Of a stretch of 64,000 nt of DNA, positions 27,575 through 63,495 are shown in pieces (position 1 is the stretch's first letter; the number at the start of each line of letters is the position of its first letter). This DNA comes from Mucilaginibacter sp. (GTDB lineage: Bacteria; Bacteroidota; Bacteroidia; Sphingobacteriales; Sphingobacteriaceae): contig NZ_JBGCVY010000049.1 in NCBI RefSeq assembly GCF_041088075.1, forward strand, positions 25,203 to 89,202, written 5' to 3'. The position numbers and the translations under genes are program-made. The notes below the pieces were generated by a model. It was not told the DNA's origin. It was given only the letters and a program-made list of their open reading frames with translations, and made no database searches.

Positions 27575-28309
27575 ATGATCGTGAGTTTAACCATCGTCCG
27601 TTACCCAAAAGCATTTGTCCCGCTGGCGCTGATGGCGATGGCGATACTTCGTTTACCGATGCTTTTTCAGCGTAAATGTTCTTTTTATAAATTGATGGGC
27701 AGCGGCAAAAACGGCACTTTCGATTTTCATCCCGACTGGCAACAATGGGCTTTGCTGGCCGTTTGGGAAGATGAGGAAAGCTTCAACCGTTTCGACCAAA
27801 ATTCCTTTGTTTCGAAGTGGTGGAAAAATTTAACTGCCGAAAAATGGACGGTTTTGCTTCAACCCATCCAAACACATGGCAAATGGGACAAACAGGAACC
27901 TTTTGGCGAACCCAACTTAACTGATTATCAAGGGCCAATTGCTGTTTTGACCCGCGCCACCATCAACTTAAACCGTTTAAAAAACTTTTGGCAAAATGCG
28001 GCCAATATTGCTTCGATCATGACTTCCGCGCCGGGTTATATTACGTCGCTGGGCGTTGGCGAAGACCCGTTTTTGCACCAAGCCACCATTTCTTTTTGGC
28101 AAGATTTGGAAGCAGTGAAAAACTTTGCCTACCGCTCGCCGAAACATGTAGAAGTGATCAAAAAAACGCGCAGTGAAAACTGGTACAGCGAAGAACTTTT
28201 TGCCCGTTTTGTTCCTTTAAAAGCTTGGGGAACGCTGCGCGGAAAAAACCCGTTGCAAGGTTTTGTTGATGATGCTGCAACGAAAAACGATGCTTCTTTT
28301 ACCGGCTAA
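27575..28309 (+). CDS. DUF3291 / spheroidene-monooxygenase-like family protein (assignment uncertain)
   Basis: 244 aa; N-terminal pattern recalled from that family. The last 7 codons and the stop lie inside a Family-1 L-arm. Confidence 0.45.
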   Translation: MIVSLTIVRYPKAFVPLALMAMAILRLPMLFQRKCSFYKLMGSGKNGTFDFHPDWQQWALLAVWEDEESFNRFDQNSFVSKWWKNLTAEKWTVLLQPIQTHGKWDKQEPFGEPNLTDYQGPIAVLTRATINLNRLKNFWQNAANIASIMTSAPGYITSLGVGEDPFLHQATISFWQDLEAVKNFAYRSPKHVEVIKKTRSENWYSEELFARFVPLKAWGTLRGKNPLQGFVDDAATKNDASFTG

Positions 28310-28318
28310 AAATCAACC
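28290..28318. repeat. Family-1 L-arm containing a CDS stop codon
   Basis: ATGCTTCTTTTACCGGCTAAAAATCAACC; it encodes DASFTG plus the stop. Confidence 0.8.
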
Positions 28319-28344
28319 TAAAACTTTATTTTTAAACTATTTAT

Positions 28345-29160: not shown

Positions 29161-29394
29161 GATAAAGATTAATCGGAAAAATAAAAGCCGGTAACAAAAT
29201 TATCAGAAAACGGTTGGCGCAAACGGTATAGTCAAATTTAAAAAATCGGAACATTTGATGCAGAAAAAACTGCTTTAAACTCCTATCATTGCCTGTTTGA
29301 AAGCTTTTGTTTTTTTACATGAAATTGAAAACGGGATCAGCATTTAAAGCATCAAGGGAAAAGTAAAGCAGCGCAAAAGTAAAATCAACCCATT

Positions 29395-30429
29395 TTGACA
29401 AAACCAATCCTCGTATTAAAATTTGGAACGGCCTCCATTACCCAAAAAAACGGGGAACTGGACGAAGCCGTACTTGCCGAGATTGCACGGCAGGTGGCGC
29501 AACTGCACGGGCAATACAACATTGTGCTGGTTTCTTCCGGTGCGGTTGGCGCGGGCAAACACTTCATCAAAAACTACAGCGGCACCATCAGTGAGCGCAA
29601 AGCGGCGGCGGCCATCGGCAACCCTTTATTGCTGGGCAGGTACGCATACTTCTTTTACCCCTATAAAATCAATATCGCGCAAAGCTTGTGCGAGCGGACG
29701 CATTTTTCTAACCGGAAACAGTTTTTGCAGTTGAAGAAAACGTATGAAGAATTGTGGGCGAACAACATCATTCCGGTTGCTAACGAAAACGATGTTGTAA
29801 GTGATCTGGAACTCAAGTTTTCGGATAATGATGAACTCGCTACGCTGATTGCCGTAGGTTTTGGCGCTTCGTTGTTGCTGTTCAGCACTTCTGTTCCCGG
29901 CGTTTTGGATGCAGATGGAAAAGTAATCCCGAAGATTGAAGTGATTGATAAAAACGCATTGTCTCTCGCCAATAAAGAAAAATCAACTTTAGGTTTAGGC
30001 GGAATGGTTTCCAAGTTGACTTTTGCACGATTGGCCACACAAATGGGTATTAAAGTAGTGATTTTTGGTGTGAGGACAGAAGACGGAATCCTGAATGCGA
30101 TACAGGAAAAAACCGGTACGCTTTGCCTGCCACAAGCTTGTACCATTCCGGCGCGAAAAAAATGGCTGGCCAGCGGCAGTTTAGTTACGGGGCGGTTGCA
30201 GGTTGATGCAGGCGCACAACAAGCTTTGCAAAACGGAAAAAGTTTGCTGGCCGTAGGGATTACTGAAATTATAGAAAAATTTGAAAACGGTGAAGTGTTT
30301 GAGATTTTAGACGGGCAAAACCAGGCTATTGCCGTTGCACGGGCGCGTGTGGCTTCGGATGAAATCCAATTGGATCAAAAAACAGAAAAAGTTACGGTGG
30401 CACATGCGGATGAGATTGTGTTGTTGTAA
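29395..30429 (+). CDS. proB: Glutamate 5-kinase
   Basis: Kinase motifs (VLKFGTASIT, VSSGAVGAG, NENDVV, SDNDELA) and a C-terminal PUA-like domain; TTG start. Confidence 0.9.
   Translation: MTKPILVLKFGTASITQKNGELDEAVLAEIARQVAQLHGQYNIVLVSSGAVGAGKHFIKNYSGTISERKAAAAIGNPLLLGRYAYFFYPYKINIAQSLCERTHFSNRKQFLQLKKTYEELWANNIIPVANENDVVSDLELKFSDNDELATLIAVGFGASLLLFSTSVPGVLDADGKVIPKIEVIDKNALSLANKEKSTLGLGGMVSKLTFARLATQMGIKVVIFGVRTEDGILNAIQEKTGTLCLPQACTIPARKKWLASGSLVTGRLQVDAGAQQALQNGKSLLAVGITEIIEKFENGEVFEILDGQNQAIAVARARVASDEIQLDQKTEKVTVAHADEIVLL
29646..29677. repeat. Family-1 arm-like segment inside proB
   Basis: ATACTTCTTTTACCCCTATAAAATCAATATCG, encoding YFFYPYKINI. Confidence 0.7.
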
Positions 30430-30444
30430 TAACGTTTGATTTTA

Positions 30445-30761
30445 CGTTCTTTTTGCTTGATGAAAAAGAACCAAAAATTCAAGACAAACCCGATCCCTCC
30501 GGGCGTTTTGTCGGGCCTTTCCGCACCTGGGCGGAGACCTGCCGCTTTGGGATATCAGCGGTTATCGTGCGCTTGTTGAACAACCTTTTTAAATGCTTCT
30601 TTTACCGGTATAAATTTGGTGAGATGGAAAGTAGCTTGTTGTTTTTTAGAAACATGCAAGGCCGTTTGCAGATAGCCGCCCAGGAGCGTGGGGCTGAATG
30701 CCGCCCAGAGGCGATCGGCATTCTTGATTTTTTGGTTCTTTTTGATCAAGCAAAAAGAACG
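30445..30761. mobile_element. Foldback (MITE-like) element between proB and proA
   Basis: 40-bp terminal inverted repeats with 38/40 identity (30445-30484 and 30722-30761). Each arm is itself a hairpin (GTTCTTTTT...AAAAAGAAC), and the inverted similarity continues inward. A Family-1 L-arm sits at the centre. Confidence 0.55.
30593..30621. repeat. Family-1 L-arm at the centre of the foldback element
   Basis: ATGCTTCTTTTACCGGTATAAATTTGGTG. Confidence 0.85.
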
Positions 30762-30888
30762 GACAAAAACAGGGCAACGACCCGTTAATTGTCATTTTAA
30801 CAAACCTTTGGTTGATTGATTTGACGTTCCTTTGTATCAAGACCAAAAAACGAACGCAAGCAACTTCTGGTTGCAAACAAAAAATAAT

Positions 30889-32136
30889 ATGCAGACCATC
30901 CAACCACTTTTAGAGAACGCTGCCAAAGCAACCCGTTTCGTCCGAATTTTGGCCGATATACAAAAAAAGCTGTTGCTCGAAAAATTAGCGCAGCAAATCC
31001 AAGCTTCTACCCAGGAAATTATCCGGGAAAACCAAAAAGATTTAGACCGGATGGACGATACCGACCCGAAAAAAGACCGTTTGCTGTTGAACGAAAACCG
31101 CATTCATAATTTGGCCGAAAGCGTTTTTGCGGTTTCTTTGCTCACCGATCCCACCAACCGGATTTTGTCTGAAAAAACTTTGCCCAATGGCTTGTTCATC
31201 CAACAAAAAACCGTTCCGTTGGGCGTTATCGGCATCATTTATGAATCGCGCCCAAACGTAACCATTGATGTTGCCACATTATGCATCCGTTCGGGCAATG
31301 TTTGCGTGCTGCGCGGCGGCACCGATGCTTCTTTTACCAATGTTTTTTTAGTCTCGCTGATCCGAAAAGTGCTGGAAGGTTTCGGGCTGGATCAAAACAT
31401 CGTGCAGCTTTTGCCAACTGACCGCAAGTTCATTATGGAAATGCTCACGGCGGTGAAATACATTGATGTTATCATTCCGCGCGGTTCGCAACAACTGATC
31501 AATTATGTGCGCGAACATGCCAAAGTTCCGGTCATCGAAACCGGTGCCGGCGTTTGCCACACTTATGTTGAACGTACGGCTGACTTGGAAAAAGCTACCG
31601 CCATTGTGGTGAATGCAAAAGTTTCACGCCCGTCGGTCTGTAATGCGTTGGATACCATTTTGGTGGATGAAAACATTGCCGAAAAACTACTGCTAAAAAC
31701 AGCATCGCAATTCAAGGAGTTTCAGGTAGAGATTTTTGCGGACGAACGCGCCTTTGCCATCCTCAAAAACAACAATTACCCCTACTTGCAACAAGCAAAA
31801 CCGGAAGACTTTGGCCGGGAGTTTTTGGATTTTAAATGCTCTGTAAAAATAGTATCCGGTTACGAAGAAGCGCTGGGACACATTGTACAGTTTTCCTCCA
31901 AACATTCGGAAGCCATCGTTTCGCAAGACCAAAACCTGTGCGAAGCCTTTTTAAACGACGTGGATGCCGCTGCCGTTTACGCCAATGCTTCCACCCGTTT
32001 TACCGACGGCAGCGAATTTGGCCTGGGTGCCGAAATTGGTATCTCTACCCAAAAACTACATGCCCGCGGCCCGTTTGCCCTGGAAAAACTGGTTACGGAG
32101 AAATGGGTTGTGCGGGGCGATGGGCAGGTGCGGTAG
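30889..32136 (+). CDS. proA: Glutamate-5-semialdehyde dehydrogenase
   Basis: Motifs IYESRPNVT, VCNALDT and NASTRFTDG. The ORF is open from 30832, but that extension overlaps repeat sequence. Confidence 0.9.
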   Translation: MQTIQPLLENAAKATRFVRILADIQKKLLLEKLAQQIQASTQEIIRENQKDLDRMDDTDPKKDRLLLNENRIHNLAESVFAVSLLTDPTNRILSEKTLPNGLFIQQKTVPLGVIGIIYESRPNVTIDVATLCIRSGNVCVLRGGTDASFTNVFLVSLIRKVLEGFGLDQNIVQLLPTDRKFIMEMLTAVKYIDVIIPRGSQQLINYVREHAKVPVIETGAGVCHTYVERTADLEKATAIVVNAKVSRPSVCNALDTILVDENIAEKLLLKTASQFKEFQVEIFADERAFAILKNNNYPYLQQAKPEDFGREFLDFKCSVKIVSGYEEALGHIVQFSSKHSEAIVSQDQNLCEAFLNDVDAAAVYANASTRFTDGSEFGLGAEIGISTQKLHARGPFALEKLVTEKWVVRGDGQVR

Positions 32137-33807: not shown

Positions 33808-34920
33808 CTACTTAATCCCCATAAACAACCTGCTCCACCGAATCTTGTGCATAAAAGAAGCATTCTCGTCCCAGCTCATCCACACAAATAAAGCTTTGCC
33901 TACAATGTGGTCTTCGGGTACAAAACCCCAGAAACGGCTGTCTAACGAGTTGTGGCGGTTATCGCCCATCATCCAGTAATAATCCATTTTGAAGGTGTAC
34001 TGGTTGGTTTTGGTGCCGTTGATGAAAATATCGTTGCCGCGTTTTTCCAGCTTGTTGTTTTCGTACAGTTTGATGGCGCGTTCGTAGATCATGTAATTCA
34101 GCGAATCCAGCGTAACCGTCCAGCCTTTTTTCGGGATAATGATCGGGCCGTAATTATCCACGTTCCATTTCAAACGGGTATCGTGCGGAAAAACCTGCAA
34201 ATCGGCCTGGCCCGGCGGCTGGATATAAGGCGCAATGTAAGTGATGTTGGAGTACGATTTTAAAATGGGCACACTGGCGCGCGGCATAATCCATTCCAAA
34301 TCGGTGGCGTTAACCTGGCCATGCGAAGGATCAATATGCAAATCGTACAAAACTTGCGGGTTTAATTCCTGACCGTTGGTGCGAATTAAGTAAGAAGTCT
34401 GGCTTTCGGACGGCGTTTCGGCTGCTTTTCCGTTTACATAAACCTGCGTATTGATGAGTTTCAACGTATCGCCCGGCGTTCCCTGGCAGCGTTTGATGTA
34501 GTTTTCGCGCTTATCCACCGGGCGGTACAAAGGCGAGTCGGCATCCATCGGATAATTAAAAACAACGACATCACCTTTTTTAACATGACTGAATCCCGGC
34601 AAACGGTAATAAGGCAATTTCACGCCGTCCCAGTAGGATTTGATGTCGAACAGCGGCATGGTATGATGGGCAAACGGAAAAGAAATCGGTGTCATCGGTG
34701 TGCGTGCGCCATAGTTTACCTTGCTTACAAACAAGAAATCGCCAACCAGCAGCGAGCGTTCCATGGATGGCGTTGGAATGGTAAATGCTTCGATAAACAA
34801 ACCACGGATCAACGTAGCGGCGATGACGGCAAACACAATCGCATCAATCCATTCGCGCGTGGCGCTTTTCTTTTTTTTCTTGGTATCGGCAGCAGTTTTG
34901 TTCCAGAATCTCCAACTCAT
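33808..34920 (-). CDS. lepB: Signal peptidase I
   Basis: S26 motifs [27 protein letters not shown]. Confidence 0.9.
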
Positions 34921-34952: not shown

Positions 34953-35705
34953 TTAAGCGTTAAAATTAAACAGATCGGCGGCTGTAAAGAAACCTTTACG
35001 GTCTTTAACCCACTCGGCGGCCAGCACCGCGCCCAAAGCAAAACCTGAGCGATTGTGCGCCGTATGTTTAAACTCGATGCTGTCCACTTCCGAATCGTAA
35101 ACCACGGTATGCGTGCCTGGAACATTTTCGATCCGGTGCGATTCGATCAGCAATTGCTGCGGCGTAATGCTAAGCGGCGAAGCATCATTCAAAGTGCCCG
35201 AAACCACATTGACCCATGCTTCTTTTACCGGCATATTTTCGATGATGCCTTCGGCGATGGTGATGGCCGTTCCGCTTGGCGCATCTAATTTTTGGGTATG
35301 GTGGATTTCTTCGACCTGAACTTCGTAATCCGGGAAACGATTCATCACTTTGGCCAGCATTTTATTGATATGGAAAAAAATATTCACACCAACACTAAAA
35401 TTGGAAGCGTAAATCAGGGAAGCATTGCGCTGCAAACACTCAATTTTAACTTCCTGCAATTTTTCGTACCAGCCCGTTGCGCCAACCACAACCGGAATTT
35501 CGGCTTCAAAACAAAGCGCAATATTGTTTAAAACGGTATGCGGCGTACTAAATTCGATCGCAACGTCTGCTTTTTGCAGGTTTTCTAAAGTTAGTTCCTG
35601 CAAATTATCATGATCAATTTTCAGAACAATTTCGTGTTTGCGCTCCAGGGCAACCTGCTCGATCATCTTGCCCATTTTTCCGTATCCGAGTAAAGCTATT
35701 TTCAT
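34953..35705 (-). CDS. dapB: 4-hydroxy-tetrahydrodipicolinate reductase
   Basis: Motifs GYGKMG and [15 protein letters not shown]. Confidence 0.9.
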
Positions 35706-35807: not shown

Positions 35808-36446
35808 TCACCTCAGCTTCACCGTTACTTTCAATCCGGGAACAAAACCACCGTAAGCAAACGCTGGCAAACTGAGCATCGTTGGCGTAACCTTAAAACC
35901 CAAATTGTTGTCCATCGTGTACGAATGCTGGAACTTGGCCGCGATATAAGCATCAATGGCCTGTATTCCCCAAAAAGCAACCGTACCGATGATGGTTAAA
36001 TCGCGGTTGCGGTGATAAAAATCTTTAAAAACAAGGATCGTCGCATTTTGACCGTTATAAATAGGATCTACTTTTCCTCCAACAGATTGGATTTGTGCCA
36101 CCTTTAAATACTTTTTGTAATTGGTTTGCGCCACATAATACGAATAACCTAAGCCAACAAACCCGCCATAAACAATGGGTAGTTTCCAATATTGGTGGTT
36201 GTAAATTTGCCCTAATCCCGGAAATACCAAAGATTTAATGACCGCTTTATGCGGGCTGTGCGTACTGTCCGGGTGGTAAACTTTATCTTTTGGCTGCTCG
36301 TTTTTGGGCTTAAAAGGCGACAAAACGGTTGTGGTATCACCCGTAACACTCACCGTATCGCGGCGGTTTTTGCGTGGTTTTTTTTGGGCATGAAGCACCT
36401 CTGCACAAAAAAACAGCAGTAAAAGAAGTATCAGGGATTTGTACAT
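35808..36446 (-). CDS. DUF5683 domain protein
   Basis: Motif PGLGQIYN; conserved position between parB and dapB in Bacteroidota. Confidence 0.65.
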   Translation of the reverse strand: MYKSLILLLLLFFCAEVLHAQKKPRKNRRDTVSVTGDTTTVLSPFKPKNEQPKDKVYHPDSTHSPHKAVIKSLVFPGLGQIYNHQYWKLPIVYGGFVGLGYSYYVAQTNYKKYLKVAQIQSVGGKVDPIYNGQNATILVFKDFYHRNRDLTIIGTVAFWGIQAIDAYIAAKFQHSYTMDNNLGFKVTPTMLSLPAFAYGGFVPGLKVTVKLR

Positions 36447-36447
36447 T

Positions 36448-37365
36448 TTACCAGTCGAGCATTTCCAGTATGCGGTTCAAATCGTCTTCAGACAAAAACG
36501 GGATTTCGATGCTGCCTTTTCCGTTTTGCCCCACTTTTAGTTTTACCGGAGAATTGAACTTGGAAGCCAGATCAGATTGTATCTTTTGCGCCTGAAAAGA
36601 AGGTTTAGGGCTTGGTTTGCCAATGCTGTTTTTAGCAGGTGTTTTTTGGAGTTCGCGCACCAGTTCTTCCACTTTACGCACCGATAAACCTTTTTCAATA
36701 ATCTGGTGATGGATAAAAAGCAGTTTTGCCGCATCTTCCACGTTGACCAAAGCGCGGGCGTGGCCCATTGTAATTTGCCCGTCGCGAATGGAAGATTGTA
36801 CCACCGGCGGCAATTTTAACAAGCGCAAATAATTGGTAACGGTTGATCGGTTTTTGCTAACGCGCTCGCCCAGTTCGTCCTGCTTTAAATTACATTCGTC
36901 AATCATCCGCTGAAAACTCAACGCCATTTCTATCGCGTTCAGGTTTTCCCGCTGGATATTTTCGATCAAAGCCATTTCCAACATCTGCTGATCGTTGGCG
37001 GTGCGCACGTAAGCCGGAATTTCTGTTAAACCAGCTATTTTAGAGGCACGCAAACGCCGTTCGCCGGAAATTAATTGGTAAGAACGCACGCCGGTTTTAC
37101 GAACGGTAACCGGCTGGATCAAACCCTGGACAGAAATTGAATCGGCCAGTTCCTGCAAAGCCTGCTCGTCAAATTCTGTTCTTGGCTGAAAAGGGTTTAC
37201 TTCGATCTCACTGATTTTAACGGCGTTAACCGATTTTAAACCTTCCGTTTCCGGCGCGGCAACAATCGGGGTTGCTTTTTTTGCAGCCGTTCCGTTTACA
37301 TAATCCGAATCGTTTAGCAAAGCGCCTAAACCTCTTCCCAACGCATTTCTCTTATCTGCACTCAT
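36448..37365 (-). CDS. parB: Chromosome partitioning protein ParB
   Basis: Motifs [20 protein letters not shown] and an HTH. Confidence 0.9.
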
Positions 37366-38171
37366 TTGCTCCCTACTTTCTTCAGCTTAACGTCTTCCTC
37401 TTTCACCATGCCGTTGTTGCGCAAAATTTCGCGAGCCAGGTTGAGGTAATTGATGGTGCCTTTGCAGGTGGCATCGTGCATAATTACCGACATGCCAAAA
37501 CTCGGCGCCTCGCTTAAACGCGTGTTCCGCTGGATGATGGTGTTAAAAACCAAATTCTCAAAATGCGTCCGAACTTCTTCCACCACCTGGTTGGATAAGC
37601 GCAAACGTACATCGTACATCGTTAACAAAATACCTTCGATATCCAAGGCCGGGTTTAAGCGGTTTTGTACAATTTTGATGGTGTTGAGCAGTTTTCCCAA
37701 TCCTTCCAACGCAAAATACTCGCATTGAACCGGAATGATGACCGAATTTGCAGCCGTTAAAGCATTGATCGTGATCAAACCCAACGAAGGCGAACAATCC
37801 ACAATGATAAAATCGTACTGGTCTTTGATTTTTTCCAACACCGCTTTCATCTTGTATTCGCGGTTGGTCAGGTTGATCATCTCGATCTCCGCCCCCACCA
37901 AATCAATATGCGCCGGCAACAAATCCAGGTTTGGCGTTTCCGTTTTCTGGATCGCTTCGGCCGGTTCAATATCGTTGATGATACACTCGTAAATGCTGTT
38001 TTTGATCGTCCGCGGATCAAAACCGATACCAGATGTCGAGTTTGCCTGCGGGTCTGCATCTACCAGCAGGGTTTTATATTCTAACACCGCTAAACTTGCC
38101 GCCAGGTTTATGGAAGAAGTAGTTTTGCCTACGCCGCCTTTCTGGTTAGCCAACGCGATTATTTTACTCAT
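37362..38171 (-). CDS. parA: Chromosome partitioning ATPase ParA
   Basis: Deviant Walker A ([10 protein letters not shown]); 4-nt overlap with parB. Confidence 0.9.
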
Positions 38172-38215
38172 TGATAGTCCTCGATATATAAATTACAATG
38201 TAAATTTTTGTGCCA

Positions 38216-38253
38216 TAAAAGAAGTATTGTGTTCATGAAAAATGCTTCTTTTA
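38216..38253. repeat. Family-1 compact tail-to-tail hairpin upstream of parA
   Basis: TAAAAGAAGTAT at 38216-38227, a 14-nt loop, then ATGCTTCTTTTA at 38242-38253. Confidence 0.8.
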
Positions 38254-38498
38254 TGCCTGCTTTTTTACAATTTTTATTGGTGCAAGATACCTACATTTTT
38301 ACAATTTGTAAGCCTTCATGTTTCCACATCCAACCGTGTTTCTCAAAGGGTTTATGTGGATAAGTTTGCTGTAACACTACAACGTTGCAATACGGCTTTT
38401 ATCTTAACGGCCATTACTTTTTACGCTGATTTAACCAAATCGTTTAAACTATTAATTAAAAGTGCTGTTATGCAACACATACACTAAACGATAAAACT

Positions 38499-38922: not shown

Positions 38923-39069
38923 TGTTTAAAATTTTCCAATTTATTTTCCATGCTTCTTTTACCCTATAAAAATTAGTAAATATTTGGTTTTTAGTTTATA
39001 AAAATTGATGCCGGCACCAATTTTTATAGGGTAAAAGAAGCATTGGCATTTTTCATATAAATTTAAACA
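38923..39069. repeat. Family-1 composite element (complete)
   Basis: TGTTTAAAA outer box, L-arm 38950-38978, R-arm 39015-39043, TTTAAACA at 39062-39069. Confidence 0.9.
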
Positions 39070-39627: not shown

Positions 39628-39890
39628 GTTGATTTGTTTTTGATGCTTCTTTTATCGCATAAAAATCATTGTCTGGTATTTTCCAATAATGTTTTGGCTA
39701 AAGCCATTCGCCGATCTGCTTTAACCACGGCCTCAAGCCATGGCAATTGAAGTTTCTGAAGTTTTAGGTTGAATTGTTTTTGATGCTTCTTTTATCGCAT
39801 AAAAACATTGGCTGTATTTGCAAAAATGTTTTGGCTAAAGCCATTTGCCGGTCTGCTTTAACCACGGCCTAAAGGCCATGGCAATTGTAG
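39612..39890. repeat. Tandem direct duplication (2 x about 140 bp); each copy carries a Family-1 L-arm and a Family-4 half
   Basis: Copy 1 is 39612-39751 and copy 2 is 39752-39890. Copy 1 starts inside the last 16 nt of CDS 39106-39627. Confidence 0.8.
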
Positions 39891-40025: not shown

Positions 40026-40715
40026 CTACTTCCCATTAATCAATTTTGCCACTACAAATGCCGCCGCCGCTGCCAGCGCGCCAATCACCACCACTTTTAT
40101 AGCTCCAGAAAACGGTGCCTGTCCGGTAACTTTACTTTTAAAATACCCAAAAACAAACAGGCAAAGCACCGTTACCGCACACGAATAATACAACGCCACG
40201 CCGGATTCAGCAATAAAAAAATAAGGCGACAAAGGAATAATGCCACCGGCGATGTAAGACAAACCGATGGTTAAAGCACTCTGCGAGGCGCGGTTAGCTT
40301 CCGGTTTTTCCAGGCCCAATTCGTAACGCATCATAAAATCTACCCATTTATCGGTGTCTTTTGCCATTTCATCGGCCACCTCGTTTTGCAATTGCGGCGA
40401 TAAACCAAAACCGGCAAATACTTCTTTTACCTCTGTTTTTTCCTGCTCGGGCACACGGGCAACTTCGTCGTATTCGCGTTGCAGTTCCGATGCGTAATGG
40501 TCGGCTTCTGTTTTTCCGGCCAAAAATCCGCCCAAACCCATCGCGATAGAACCGGCCACAATTTCGGCAATGCCAGCGGTGATGATAATGCTGGATGAAT
40601 TGACCGCGCCGCTTAAACCGGCAGCCAAAGCAAACGGAACGGTTAAACCATCCGACATACCGATCACAATATCCCGAATGGTATCCGAACTGCGCAAATG
40701 ATGTTCGTGGTGCAT
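40026..40715 (-). CDS. VIT1/CCC1 family iron/manganese transporter
   Basis: Motifs IVIGMSDGLTVPFAL and 5 TM helices. Confidence 0.8.
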   Translation of the reverse strand: MHHEHHLRSSDTIRDIVIGMSDGLTVPFALAAGLSGAVNSSSIIITAGIAEIVAGSIAMGLGGFLAGKTEADHYASELQREYDEVARVPEQEKTEVKEVFAGFGLSPQLQNEVADEMAKDTDKWVDFMMRYELGLEKPEANRASQSALTIGLSYIAGGIIPLSPYFFIAESGVALYYSCAVTVLCLFVFGYFKSKVTGQAPFSGAIKVVVIGALAAAAAFVVAKLINGK

Positions 40716-62364: not shown

Positions 62365-63495
62365 ATGCGCAAACCGCTAACCATTGGTGTAGATATCCGC
62401 GATTTGCGTGTGGCCAAAACCGGCACCAAAACTTACCTGGAAGAGTTGTGCAAAGCGTTTAAGCAGATGGATCAGTCGAATATTTGCTTTCATTTTTTAG
62501 ATACCAGCCTTCCCATTTACACCGGCAACAACAAAATTTTAAAATGGATTGAGCATTTTAAATATCAGCTTTGGAAGCAACTGGTTTTGCCGCTGAAAGC
62601 TTTTTTTAAAAACTGCGATGTGGTTTTTTGCACCGATAATTTTGTCCCGTTTATCCATTTGGGCTATCAAACCGTTCCTGTTTTTCATGATGCCTTCTTC
62701 TTTGAAAACCCCGAAAACTACGGCAAGTTGTGGTTGTGGCTGTATAAAAAAATGGCAATCCCGGCAGCAAAAAGGGCGGCATTTATAATTACGCCGACTG
62801 AATATGCCAAACAACAAATCCATCGTTTCACACAAATCCCAAACGAAAAACTGGTGGTGGTTTATGAAGGCCCGAAATCTTTAAACGAAACCAAAAGCAA
62901 CAATCAACCCGAACAATTGCTCAAAGCCTTTTCGATATTGCCTTTGCAGTACATCTTACACGTAGGTTCGATGTTTAAACGGAAAAATATTCCAACCTTG
63001 ATTACTGCTTTTGCCAAGGTAAAAAAAGCCGGGTTTGAACATTTGAAATTGGTTTTGGCCGGGCCAATTCCTCCGGCTGCAAATGAAACAGATTATAAAT
63101 TGATTTTGGAGGCCATCAAAAAAAACCAGCTTCAAAACGAGGTTGTCCTGACAGGATATTTGCCGGATACCGCTTTAAGCCAGCTTTATCAAAACGCTTT
63201 GCTGTACGTTTTCCCTTCGGTGAACGAAGGTTTCGGGATACCGGTTTTAGAAGCTTTTGCACACAATATTCCCGTTTTGGTTGCCAACAACACCTGCCTG
63301 CCCGAAGTTGGCGGCGATGCCGTTTTGCAATTTGACCCTTTTGATACCGATGCTGTTTTTACCGCCATAAAAACAGTATTGGAAGATGCGGAACTTAGAA
63401 AAGAAATGATCCGGAAAGGGCAAATACGTTTACAGAGGTTTTCCTGGGAAAAAACAGCCCGGCAAATTGTTGAAGTATTCAAAAAAGCGGTTTAG
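62365..63495 (+). CDS. Glycosyltransferase family 4 (GT-B)
   Basis: Motif FPSVNEGFGIPVLEAF (E-x7-E). Confidence 0.85.
   Translation: MRKPLTIGVDIRDLRVAKTGTKTYLEELCKAFKQMDQSNICFHFLDTSLPIYTGNNKILKWIEHFKYQLWKQLVLPLKAFFKNCDVVFCTDNFVPFIHLGYQTVPVFHDAFFFENPENYGKLWLWLYKKMAIPAAKRAAFIITPTEYAKQQIHRFTQIPNEKLVVVYEGPKSLNETKSNNQPEQLLKAFSILPLQYILHVGSMFKRKNIPTLITAFAKVKKAGFEHLKLVLAGPIPPAANETDYKLILEAIKKNQLQNEVVLTGYLPDTALSQLYQNALLYVFPSVNEGFGIPVLEAFAHNIPVLVANNTCLPEVGGDAVLQFDPFDTDAVFTAIKTVLEDAELRKEMIRKGQIRLQRFSWEKTARQIVEVFKKAV

Follow-up and report, generated by a model that had tools for sequence, protein, structure and literature searches.

A clade-specific repeated DNA motif lies within proB and other housekeeping genes of Mucilaginibacter-like Bacteroidota, with protein length unchanged

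How can a conserved gene come to contain, in frame, a sequence that resembles one arm of an intergenic repeat? The question is raised by proB in the 64-kb stretch of DNA analysed here, referred to below as the window. The gene (positions 29,395-30,429, + strand) starts with TTG and encodes a glutamate 5-kinase of 344 amino acids; PF00696 and PF01472 were found on all homologues. Within it the 32-mer ATACTTCTTTTACCCCTATAAAATCAATATCG (29,646-29,677, + strand) encodes YFFYPYKINI. A preliminary description of this DNA had placed the 32-mer in frame in glutamate 5-kinase, with which the open reading frame and the Pfam domains of the homologues agree, and had likened it to an L-arm consensus, ATGCTTCTTTTACCCTATAAAAATTGGTG. 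That consensus is real, with 5 exact copies in the window and 10 with no more than 3 mismatches, where none is expected, and the proB site scored 28.0 bits in a PWM search. The highest-scoring site in outgroup DNA, of which 187 kb was scanned on both strands (374 kb of strand), reached 6.5 bits. This difference, together with the repeat counts, places the resemblance far beyond chance.

The motif is an asymmetric unit of approximately 30 nt, in which a 14-nt core, ATGC(TTC/TGT)TTTTAYC, is followed by four unconstrained spacer nucleotides and then by a run of five or six A/T. At the proB site these parts are the core ATACTTCTTTTACC (29,646-29,659), the spacer CCTA (29,660-29,663) and the A/T run TAAAAT (29,664-29,669), and there is no mismatch to a 19-position degenerate consensus. 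The window contains 65 PWM matches, 36 on the + strand and 29 on the - strand, and 55 sites scored at least 20 bits, so that the proB score falls among those of genuine members of the family; the PWM was trained on 40 intergenic copies and leans toward A-runs. The 12-mer CTTCTTTTACCC was found 33 times with at most one mismatch, compared with 0.49 expected. The A/T runs consist of approximately 70% A and 30% T, and both A-rich and T-rich runs occur. The core variants are sharply bimodal (TTC 152, TGT 104, TTT 8 and TGC 2), and TTC and TGT are present side by side in each genome.

Over 1.06 Mb the motif density was 0.73 per kb, or about 0.7-1 per kb overall. Coding sequence holds only approximately 13-19% of the strict copies, and the intergenic density is about 15-20 times the coding density. 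The coding copies (51 sense, 51 antisense) occupy all five stop-free reading frames and never the stop-containing one. Within the window, 13 of the 65 PWM matches lie well inside Pfam-supported genes, and approximately 30 of 90 consensus-like sites are inside genes, without any indel. When the degenerate consensus was applied to 42 kb of coding DNA, 10, 5 and 15 sites were found at 0, 1 and 2 mismatches, compared with 0, 0 and 1 in 250 kb of outgroup DNA; fewer than one coding site was expected, and 30 were observed. Nearly all intergenic regions of at least 200 bp contain a copy, whatever the direction of the flanking genes. Tandem, convergent and divergent spacers carry approximately 3.1-3.6 copies per kb, with no preference for terminator-type over promoter-type spacers, and the spacing between copies was not significantly more regular than random (CV 0.72, null 0.83, P = 0.16). 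T-rich runs were not significantly enriched in coding copies (Fisher P = 0.16), a comparison that the A bias of the PWM makes unusable. A search of Rfam returned two tRNAs only, the repeats matching no family, and a literature search for the motif sequence, for uptake sequences in Sphingobacteriia and for M. arboris repeats found nothing. The Bacteroidetes promoter (-33/-7), the ECF promoter, the DnaA box and the IHF site were rejected by eye because the consensus does not fit them; these readings also leave the conserved intragenic copies in both orientations unexplained.

The motif family was present in all genomes of an M. arboris-like clade that was monophyletic in 200 of 200 bootstraps. 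The 13 outgroup loci searched, 250 kb in all, gave no copy; the outgroups without copies are Chitinophaga, Pedobacter, Spirosoma, M. paludis and the 78%-identical MAG GCA_900291625. Beyond proBA a single genome, L003, is collinear with the window, and the other intragenic copies were checked via additional loci. The window and L003 are 88% identical overall, and between them the core (96.2%) and the A/T run (96.1%) are far better conserved than the 4-nt spacer (83.8%) and the flanks (83.3%; Fisher P = 8e-9), the spacer evolving at the flank rate. Motif sites have been kept at orthologous positions in 4-10 genomes, within genes and spacers alike. The constraint acts on DNA, and at motif sites it sets the choice of both residue and codon.

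To follow the origin of the proB copy, orthologues were compared at the protein and nucleotide levels. Nearly all of the best 120 ProB homologues are 344 residues long, and an alignment of 25 loci has no gap at this part of the gene; its sole gap, elsewhere, is one codon in L024, which encodes 343 residues. In E. coli glutamate 5-kinase (2j5t/8zpj), LWEQLFSIYGIHVGQML stands opposite ryayffypykiniaqsl without a gap, as the preliminary description had it in judging a simple arm insertion unlikely; on both points it was right. The family-free orthologues of Chitinophaga, Pedobacter, Spirosoma, M. paludis and MAG GCA_900291625 read xYFAPYGIxI and score -12 to -45 with the PWM. These relatives differ from the motif in nucleotides and in residues while length is unchanged, and neither an identical sequence in a repeat-free relative nor a clean insertion was found.

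Without exception, a motif in proB is accompanied by the repeat family in the same genome. Within the clade the codon at the variable core position of proB takes two forms only, TTC (Phe) and TGT (Cys), the same pair that distinguishes the core variants of the family. Both are the rarer synonyms (TTC is 19% of Phe codons and TGT 37% of Cys codons), Cys is never found at this codon in outgroups, and 3-5 state changes are required on every bootstrap tree. Apparent intermediates were seen in L024 (..TAT TTT GCT CCG TAT AAA), L022 (CAC TAT TTT TTG CCT TAT AAA) and L023 (CAC TTC TTT TAT CCC TAT AAA). Part of the match is ancestral, as the conserved F..PY.I skeleton gives TTT..CCnTAT..AT for free; K (AAA) is already present in L024, a genome without the family, and the positions of the four changed residues also vary among outgroups. 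The proB motif state is derived, and the alignments show that it arose at a variable patch of the protein by point substitutions, with length unchanged. L022 is a clade member without a proB copy, and may have lost the motif or never gained it. A recombinant patch in L022 was rejected, since the gene is that of an ordinary clade member throughout and identity falls at the motif patch only. As a descriptive account there is very little doubt: the proB 32-mer genuinely belongs to a motif family that is found genome-wide and in this clade only, and it was written by substitutions and not by insertion.

A second in-frame copy is found in proA (30,889-32,136, + strand; located by tblastn), which encodes gamma-glutamyl phosphate reductase of 415 amino acids. 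Residues 1-415 were recovered at 19 loci in single, gap-free tblastn segments of exactly 415 columns. The copy, GATGCTTCTTTTACCAATGTTTTTTT (31,324-31,349, + strand), encodes DASFTNVFL and is invariant in 10 clade genomes, forming a run of 26 nt in a gene where just 22% of third positions do not vary and the second-longest such run measures 11 nt. Outgroup proA reads GAT GCT TTT TAT ACC AAT ACC TGC CTG at this position, and the changes toward the motif fall into two clusters with an unchanged ACC AAT between them. The distance from the proB stop to the proA ATG is 459 nt in the window, approximately 100-460 nt in the clade and approximately 10-40 nt in outgroups; in the window this spacer contains a further copy (30,593-30,622, + strand).

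Other genes carry the motif in other frames and orientations. In dapB (34,953-35,705, - strand) an antisense copy (35,216-35,245, + strand) encodes PVKEAW; a clade variant, PVKTAW (ACA), corresponds to the TGT core variant, and outgroups have D-S-K-x-E-W. The GAA/ACA switch (Glu/Thr) in dapB mirrors, on the opposite strand, the TTC/TGT switch in proB. The DapB alignment, like that of ProA, is gap-free at its motif copy. A sense copy near the C-terminus of lepB, encoding signal peptidase I (33,834-33,863, - strand), has kept NASF while the codons changed from GCA AGC TTC to GCT TCT TTT, a switch of serine codon family. Another sense copy lies in the signal-peptide region (ILLLLLFFC) of a DUF5683 gene (36,402-36,431, - strand), where the nucleotides are conserved in four clade genomes and different in M. 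paludis. A VIT1-family gene has an antisense copy (40,418-40,447, + strand) encoding EVKEVF; the outgroup sequence is EVMEVF, and two of the four nucleotide differences are synonymous. The copies in lepB, VIT1 and DUF5683 were gained through both synonymous and non-synonymous changes. At 28,290-28,319 (+ strand) a copy provides the last codons and the stop (DASFTG-stop) of a DUF3291 open reading frame (27,575-28,309).

Intergenic DNA is rich in inverted doublets of 85-105 bp, which are hairpin elements made of two motif copies. The window has 13 convergent motif pairs, and over 1.06 Mb, 179 of 245 such pairs are spaced 70-90 nt apart. Doublet arms are 29 nt and inverted, six window doublets have homologous loops, and an identical 29-mer arm was found in at least 120 metagenome loci. 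The doublet hairpins are strong (z-scores -5.5 and -7.4). For single units the folding energy was 0 to -3.2 kcal/mol (z +0.45 to -1.5); a REP-like hairpin of the single unit is not supported by these energies, and the single arm is not palindromic. A 94-bp doublet with L and R arms (Family-1; 38,950-39,043) is missing from L003, L026 and L027, the polymorphism being a 155-bp indel, larger than the element itself. No target-site duplication was visible at the doublets examined, and Pfam detected no transposase, RAYT or autonomous partner in the window. A tblastn search for Y1 transposases over approximately 1.5 Mb, with IS200 and IS608 TnpA queries, gave no match at E < 0.3, a weak negative.

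The preliminary description had proposed that the coding sequence was shaped toward the motif, as by uptake-like drive, a selected binding site or gene conversion. The shaping was borne out; the three are not fully separable by sequence alone, and a single conversion patch is disfavoured by the free spacer and by the intermediate states of the relatives. By analogy with known uptake sequences, we tentatively favour an uptake-type molecular drive as the force behind the motif, and give it somewhat less than an even chance. A persistent directional force would turn chance near-matches into motif copies and then keep them, whatever the strand or the open reading frame, and some of the changes alter amino acids. 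The cell's machinery for DNA uptake or processing would favour fragments carrying the motif, better-matching alleles would replace weaker ones through homologous recombination, and selection at the protein level would merely veto harmful versions. We count for drive the family membership of the proB site, its derived state without an indel, the constraint on DNA, the independence of orientation, the TTC/TGT and GAA/ACA switches, the excess of coding sites, the intermediates and the likeness to the uptake sequences USS and DUS.

USS and DUS occur at about the same density, on both strands, with an A/T tract, intergenic inverted pairs and genic copies at poorly conserved residues, and the coding share is 34.5-65% in H. 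influenzae, A. pleuropneumoniae and N. meningitidis (PMC2817400). As with these sequences, the present genic copies arose by substitution, in several frames, and altered local peptide composition (PMC2817400). The present motif is likewise short, asymmetric and lineage-specific, with approximately one copy per kb on both strands, intergenic inverted pairs and orthologous copies conserved between species; as in the USS of Pasteurellaceae (core AAGTGCGGT with A/T-rich flanks), a conserved core is followed by an A/T tract. In contrast, its core, ATGCTTCTTTTAYC, is longer (14 nt) and on direct reading unrelated to AAGTGCGGT or to the DUS of Neisseriaceae, ATGCCGTCTGAA. The host belongs to Bacteroidota, in which we know of no DNA-uptake specificity, and a large share of the copies lies in a hairpin element of fixed geometry (approximately 95 bp) that resembles a mobile element. 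Several results count against drive: a coding share of only 13-19% compared with 34.5-65%, which is a far stronger intergenic bias; two discrete, bimodal core variants in every genome, unknown for USS and DUS; spacing no more regular than random; and the lack of a proB copy in L022. The fixed doublet geometry, shared loops, identical arms, indel polymorphism and expanded spacers are marks of a mobile element and not of a drive by point mutation. No competence or uptake-receptor gene was found in the 64-kb window, and nothing on competence or sequence-specific uptake was found in the literature for this clade.

These marks fit a different account, on the whole unlikely, in which a REPIN- or MITE-like hairpin element is mobilised by a single-copy transposase elsewhere and near-matching coding DNA undergoes short-patch conversion. 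Template switching or short gene-conversion tracts would overwrite genes, and ongoing conversion would homogenise the copies. REP and REPIN elements, for example those of Pseudomonas fluorescens SBW25 and the BIMEs of E. coli, are mobilised by RAYT transposases, and REPs are extragenic by definition. The present family resembles them in its units of approximately 30 nt in hundreds to thousands, singlets beside inverted doublets with a short spacer, long hairpins, discrete subfamilies in one genome and long persistence at orthologous intergenic sites. The account is favoured by the fixed geometry and strong hairpins of the doublets (z -5.5 to -7.4), the homologous loops shared by six window doublets, the 29-mer at at least 120 metagenome loci, the doublet missing in three relatives and intergenic regions longer than in outgroups; the two core variants resemble subfamilies from master copies, and conversion readily explains why one codon switched repeatedly between TTC and TGT, a change of two nucleotides. 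The family departs from REPs in having 13-19% of its strict core copies in coding sequence, a non-palindromic single unit, no GTAG-type head and no RAYT in the DNA searched. Copying also fits poorly with the genic sites, where the spacer and outer flank were not copied and follow protein needs, the spacer evolves at the flank rate, and the proA changes flank an unchanged ACC AAT. A run that may be A- or T-rich suits a physical requirement better than copying, and the proB site shows stepwise intermediates. The sites originally resembled the motif over 8-13 nt at most, mismatches included, and RecA-dependent conversion needs more than this. Target-site duplications were not seen, and neither a transposase in the window (Pfam) nor, as a weak negative, a Y1 enzyme in approximately 1.5 Mb was found. 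It is also conceivable, if rather improbable, that a single undescribed mechanism, by which a selfish element rewrites near-matching host DNA, gives rise to both the hairpin family and the intragenic copies: the element's machinery or an abundant single-stranded arm copy would rewrite the DNA by templated patch repair without insertion, substitution would carry the element into essential genes, and the TTC and TGT cores would represent competing element lineages. Repeated DNA would thereby propagate in a new way, one that differs from transposition and from uptake-sequence drive.

The motif could instead be the binding site of an abundant sequence-specific DNA-binding protein, concerned with chromosome organisation, replication or the loading of repair, and selected for reasons unrelated to uptake. 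Its asymmetry, strand independence, conserved core with A/T run and free spacer are footprint-like, orthologous sites are kept across 4-10 genomes in genes and spacers, and nearly every intergenic region of at least 200 bp has a copy regardless of gene direction. We nevertheless consider such a binding site unlikely, since selection would have to fix 4-8 substitutions per site, several of them non-synonymous and in conserved enzymes, at approximately 0.7 sites per kb of coding DNA; single sites are dispensable, as in L022, and two core variants would require one tolerant protein or two paralogues. The architectural motifs Chi and KOPS are 8-mers mostly accommodated at synonymous sites, and compared with such motifs (5-8 nt, strong replication strand skew) the present one is larger (14+6 nt) and without skew (36 + and 29 -). 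The HIP1 sequence of cyanobacteria (GCGATCGC), an 8-bp palindrome tied to a methylation site, is similarly over-represented in coding and non-coding DNA and is kept at orthologous positions more often than neutrality predicts, with function unknown; the present motif differs in being asymmetric, in its 14+6 nt and in forming hairpin doublets. Coincidence, in which lineage-specific ProB replacements from evolution at the protein level mimic a degenerate repeat, draws on the ancestral F, P, Y and I residues, the AAA of family-free L024 and the variability of the four changed residues among outgroups. It is effectively refuted, its probability being very small, by the gap between 28 bits and the 6.5-bit outgroup maximum in 374 kb of scanned strand, the absence of the family from outgroups, the recurrence of the phenomenon, in further frames and also on the opposite strand, in proA, dapB, lepB, VIT1 and DUF5683, and 30 coding sites at no more than 2 mismatches compared with fewer than one expected; moreover, codon use is confined to the rare TTC and TGT, the Phe/Cys dimorphism repeats the family's two variants, and Cys never occurs in outgroups. 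Insertion of a mobile arm in frame has in its favour the sequence resemblance alone. Rickettsia palindromic elements are likewise found in frame and translated inside conserved genes, but their insertions add 30-50 residues; here ProB is approximately 344 amino acids across the best 120 homologues, there is no gap relative to E. coli glutamate 5-kinase or among 25 loci, and ProA and DapB are also gap-free. Insertion is refuted, and we give it practically no chance.

The host clade is one of lichen- and plant-associated, Mucilaginibacter-like Bacteroidota and includes the cultured isolate M. arboris HMF7410. In these bacteria the 30-nt motif determines which codons and residues are used where it occurs in proB, proA, dapB, lepB and further housekeeping genes, and its two discrete variants yield Phe/Cys and Glu/Thr polymorphisms at orthologous codons. 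To our knowledge, the only detailed accounts of repeats reshaping conserved enzymes without a change of length concern uptake sequences in two proteobacterial families. If biased DNA uptake is the force, the clade would provide the first example of an uptake-signal system beyond the Proteobacteria, and sequence-specific transformation in Bacteroidota would be directly testable; if it is the hairpin element, repeats would be shown to colonise genes through substitution. Under either explanation the motif strongly confounds dN/dS selection analyses, codon-usage studies and MAG binning in this clade, and it is a convenient clade marker. Viral contigs of the whole collection gave three isolated motif matches, too few to be informative. 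Near the end of the window, inside a GT4 glycosyltransferase gene (63,350-63,379), two TGT-variant copies on opposite strands overlap in the sequence ATGCTGTTTTTACCGCCATAAAAACAGTAT.

The sequence ATACTTCTTTTACCCCTATAAAATCAATATCG at positions 29646-29677 of the window lies in frame in the proB open reading frame (29395-30429, + strand, 344 aa, TTG start), where it is translated YFFYPYKINI. The close homologues of this frame all have AA_kinase and PUA domains and bear the name glutamate 5-kinase. The site agrees with a degenerate consensus of the repeat motif at all 19 positions, and scores 28.0 bits with a position weight matrix trained on 40 intergenic copies, against a best score of 6.5 bits in 187 kb of outgroup DNA scanned on both strands. 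The preliminary description had compared the segment with the L-arm consensus of a repeat family. This consensus is real: the window contains 5 exact matches and 10 with at most three mismatches, where none is expected. ProB is 344 aa long in nearly all of its 120 best homologues. The alignment to E. coli ProB given in the preliminary description proved correct: glutamate 5-kinase (2j5t, 8zpj) aligns without a gap through the segment, placing LFSIYGIHVG opposite FFYPYKINIA. The gap-free alignment excludes a simple insertion and, together with the constant length, bears out the earlier view that insertion of a mobile arm is unlikely.

The architecture of the motif was determined by aligning 151 copies, taken from ten related genomes as well as the window. 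The 14-nt core, ATGCTTCTTTTAYC, hardly varies and is followed on its 3′ side by four unconstrained bases, five A/T positions (A about 70%, T about 30%) and a weaker T-Y-R-G tail, and neither the sequence 5′ of the core nor that past about +29 is conserved. Every genome of the clade, the M. arboris-like genomes that carry the family, also has a second variant of the core, ATGCTGTTTTTAYC; the variants were counted as TTC 152, TGT 104, TTT 8 and TGC 2. The window yielded 65 sites with the matrix (36 on the + strand and 29 on the – strand), and the 12-mer CTTCTTTTACCC occurs there 33 times with at most one mismatch, compared with 0.49 expected. Motif density is about 0.7-1 per kb, with both strands used. 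The majority of copies lie between genes, where their density is about 3 per kb whether the spacer is tandem, convergent or divergent, and only 13-19% lie in coding sequence, a strong intergenic bias. As the motif is present in an isolate assembly of M. arboris (L002, L027), the closest named species to the window's source, it is not an artefact of MAG assembly. No Rfam family matches the repeats, and the motif sequence was not found in the searchable literature.

A genome scan yielded 21 proB loci, to which the nearest outgroups were added afterwards. Eleven of the 21 (L001-L011) come from M. arboris HMF7410 and from lichen and other MAGs, and encode proteins 86-95% identical to that of the window. 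The family is present in all of them except L004, a 2.4-kb fragment with just the proB copy, and the proB site of the 11 reads GCA TAC T(TC/GT) TTT TAY CCN TAT AAA ATY. Ten outgroups (Chitinophaga, Pedobacter, Spirosoma and a Sphingobacteriaceae MAG) contained no motif copies; their orthologous sites, for example CAG TAT TTT CAG CCT TAT AAT ATT, scored -12 to -45. The family is also absent from M. paludis (L025; GGA TAT TTT GCG CCC TAT GGT) and from a 78%-identical MAG (L024; CAA TAT TTT GCT CCG TAT AAA). All 200 bootstrap trees recovered the clade as monophyletic. The motif-like codons are thus derived in this lineage with protein length unchanged, as the preliminary description had proposed, since repeat-free orthologues differ. 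Part of the match was already in place as conserved F, P, Y and I residues, and the four changed residues (Q/G/R to Y, Y to F or C, A to Y, G to K) fall at positions that vary among outgroups. Two loci have apparent intermediates. L022 reads CAC TAT TTT TTG CCT TAT AAA (HYFLPYK) and has no motif copy there though its genome carries the family, and it groups as an ordinary clade member over the rest of proB; L023, with a score of 20 bits, reads CAC TTC TTT TAT CCC TAT AAA.

Within the clade, the second codon of the segment is dimorphic: six of the sampled genomes have TTC (Phe) and seven have TGT (Cys). No sampled clade genome has TTT or TGC there, although in the window's genome 81% of Phe codons are TTT and 63% of Cys codons are TGC. 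Cys occurs at this position in no outgroup. The two alternatives coincide exactly with the two core variants of the family, and 3-5 changes of state within the clade were required on each of 200 bootstrap trees. The same switch occurred independently on the opposite strand in dapB (34953-35705, – strand), which has an antisense motif copy at 35216-35245: the clade protein reads PVKEAW (GAA), or in L026 PVKTAW (ACA), and GAA and ACA are TTC and TGT read from the other strand. In outgroups the residues here are D-S-K-x-E-W, without an indel. The codons at these sites are dictated by the DNA motif rather than by the protein. To our knowledge, there is no earlier description of a core with two forms that has repeatedly switched the amino acid at orthologous codons. 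The TTC:TGT ratio itself varies strongly by genome (window 49:9, L003 14:4, L023 3:9, L010 11:12) and tends to match the proB codon state of the same genome, which hints at drift of a genome-level 'dialect'.

Motif copies in genes are a general phenomenon, and the motif is conserved as DNA. In proA, the 26-nt run GATGCTTCTTTTACCAATGTTTTTTT (31324-31349, DASFTNVFL) is identical in 10 of 10 clade genomes; over the gene as a whole just 22% of third codon positions do not vary, and no other unchanged stretch exceeds 11 nt. The outgroup sequence, GAT GCT TTT TAT ACC AAT ACC TGC CTG (DAFYTNTCL), aligns without gaps. In lepB the NASF residues are ancestral, and the codons changed from GCA AGC TTC to GCT TCT TTT, which includes a switch of serine codon family. 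The motif was likewise acquired by substitution in a VIT1 gene and in a DUF5683 signal peptide. At 17 sites shared by the window and L003 (88% identical overall), identity was 96.2% in the core and 96.1% in the A/T run, compared with 83.8% in the spacer and 83.3% in the flanks (Fisher P = 8e-9). Orthologous intragenic and intergenic copies around parAB-dapB-lepB are kept in four genomes. Across 1.06 Mb of metagenomic sequence in which the exact 29-mer occurs, copies well inside genes were divided equally between sense and antisense (51 each) and used all five stop-free frames, the proB frame least (5 of 102), and never the frame containing TAA. In the 42 kb of coding DNA in the window, 10 sites match the degenerate consensus fully, 5 with one mismatch and 15 with two, compared with 0, 0 and 1 in 250 kb of outgroup DNA; at three or more mismatches the two are equal. 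A DUF3291-family frame (27575-28309) ends in motif-encoded DASFTG and uses the TAA of the motif's A-run as its stop (28290-28309), as it does in L003.

Many intergenic copies are paired as convergent inverted doublets, and in the same 1.06 Mb 179 of 245 convergent pairs were spaced 70-90 nt apart. Single units do not fold, while the doublets form long hairpins (z = -5.5 and -7.4). Six doublets of the window have homologous loops, so a MITE/REPIN-like sub-family exists, and the doublet at 38950-39043 is missing from three relatives. No transposase, RAYT or competence gene was found within the 64-kb window. Other arrangements were also observed. A divergent pair (38214 –, 38242 +; region 38172-38260) immediately upstream of parA (37362-38171; parB, 36448-37365) is kept in four clade genomes, including L003, L026 and L027. 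Two TGT-variant copies overlap on opposite strands at 63350-63379, forming the near-perfect palindrome ATGCTGTTTTTACCGCCATAAAAACAGTAT within the Glycos_transf_1 domain of a GT4 glycosyltransferase gene (62365-63495). Downstream of an FMN reductase gene, direct copies at 39643-39672 and 39783-39812 are separated by 140 nt and resemble each other in their flanks (TTTTTGATGCTTCTTTTATCGCATAAAAA); a single L003 copy aligns to both, which suggests that a unit of about 140 bp was duplicated in tandem.

From the copies in genes we infer a persistent, strand-independent force on DNA, which would upgrade chance near-matches into motif copies and then preserve the informative positions while leaving the spacer free. 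Coincidence is effectively refuted by the 28.0-bit score against an outgroup maximum of 6.5 and by the excess of coding sites, and in-frame insertion by the constancy of 344 aa and the lack of a gap against E. coli. By behaviour, the nearest known systems are the uptake sequences of Pasteurellaceae and Neisseriaceae (USS/DUS). Among the features that can be read from the DNA, the motif shares with them a core with an A/T tract, about 0.7-1 copies per kb on both strands, inverted pairs between genes, restriction to one clade and location at poorly conserved residues; because of these matches, uptake-sequence molecular drive, the best-documented process with properties of this kind, is tentatively the likeliest mechanism, although we would not give it even odds. 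In such drive (Findlay and Redfield 2009, PMC2817400), motif-bearing fragments are taken up preferentially and then replace homologous DNA, and selection on the protein does no more than veto changes.

The main evidence against uptake drive is the clear mobile-element character of the intergenic doublets: their geometry is fixed, identical 29-mers recur, loops are homologous, a doublet may be present in one genome and absent from another, and the spacers are expanded. The intergenic bias and the coexistence of two discrete variants also weigh against it, as does the fact that we know of no report of competence in this group. REPINs are the nearest system by structure of the intergenic copies, and a REPIN- or MITE-like element acting with short-patch conversion might have made the copies. 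This is one of two serious rivals but rather unlikely, as the spacer is free at motif sites, the run may be A or T, the proA changes fall in two separate clusters and stepwise intermediates exist. The other, a protein-binding site maintained by ordinary selection, is slightly more doubtful still, since coding DNA has about 0.7 sites per kb and each would entail the cost of several non-synonymous changes. The motif lacks the extragenic location and palindromic unit that define REP, the insertion that defines Rickettsia palindromic elements, and the length and skew that define Chi and KOPS. No description of the motif, or of a comparable system in Bacteroidota, was found in the literature.

Some further features of the proB region were observed. 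The proB-proA spacer contains an element of about 327 bp (30440-30766) around a motif copy at 30593, flanked by 45-nt inverted repeats (30440-30484 and 30722-30766, 91% complementary) whose arm has no other occurrence in the window; the gap in outgroups is just 10-40 nt or so. Three MAGs titled 'Janthinobacterium lividum' (L001, L006, L011) have ProB and ProA 83-92% identical to those of the window and the same repeat family, and these labels appear to be wrong. A Peptidase_M28 gene of about 1.7 kb lies between a cytochrome c gene and proB in L003 (8292-9999), L022 and L023, and its absence from the window (29312-29393) marks a deletion or lineage-specific indel just upstream of proB.
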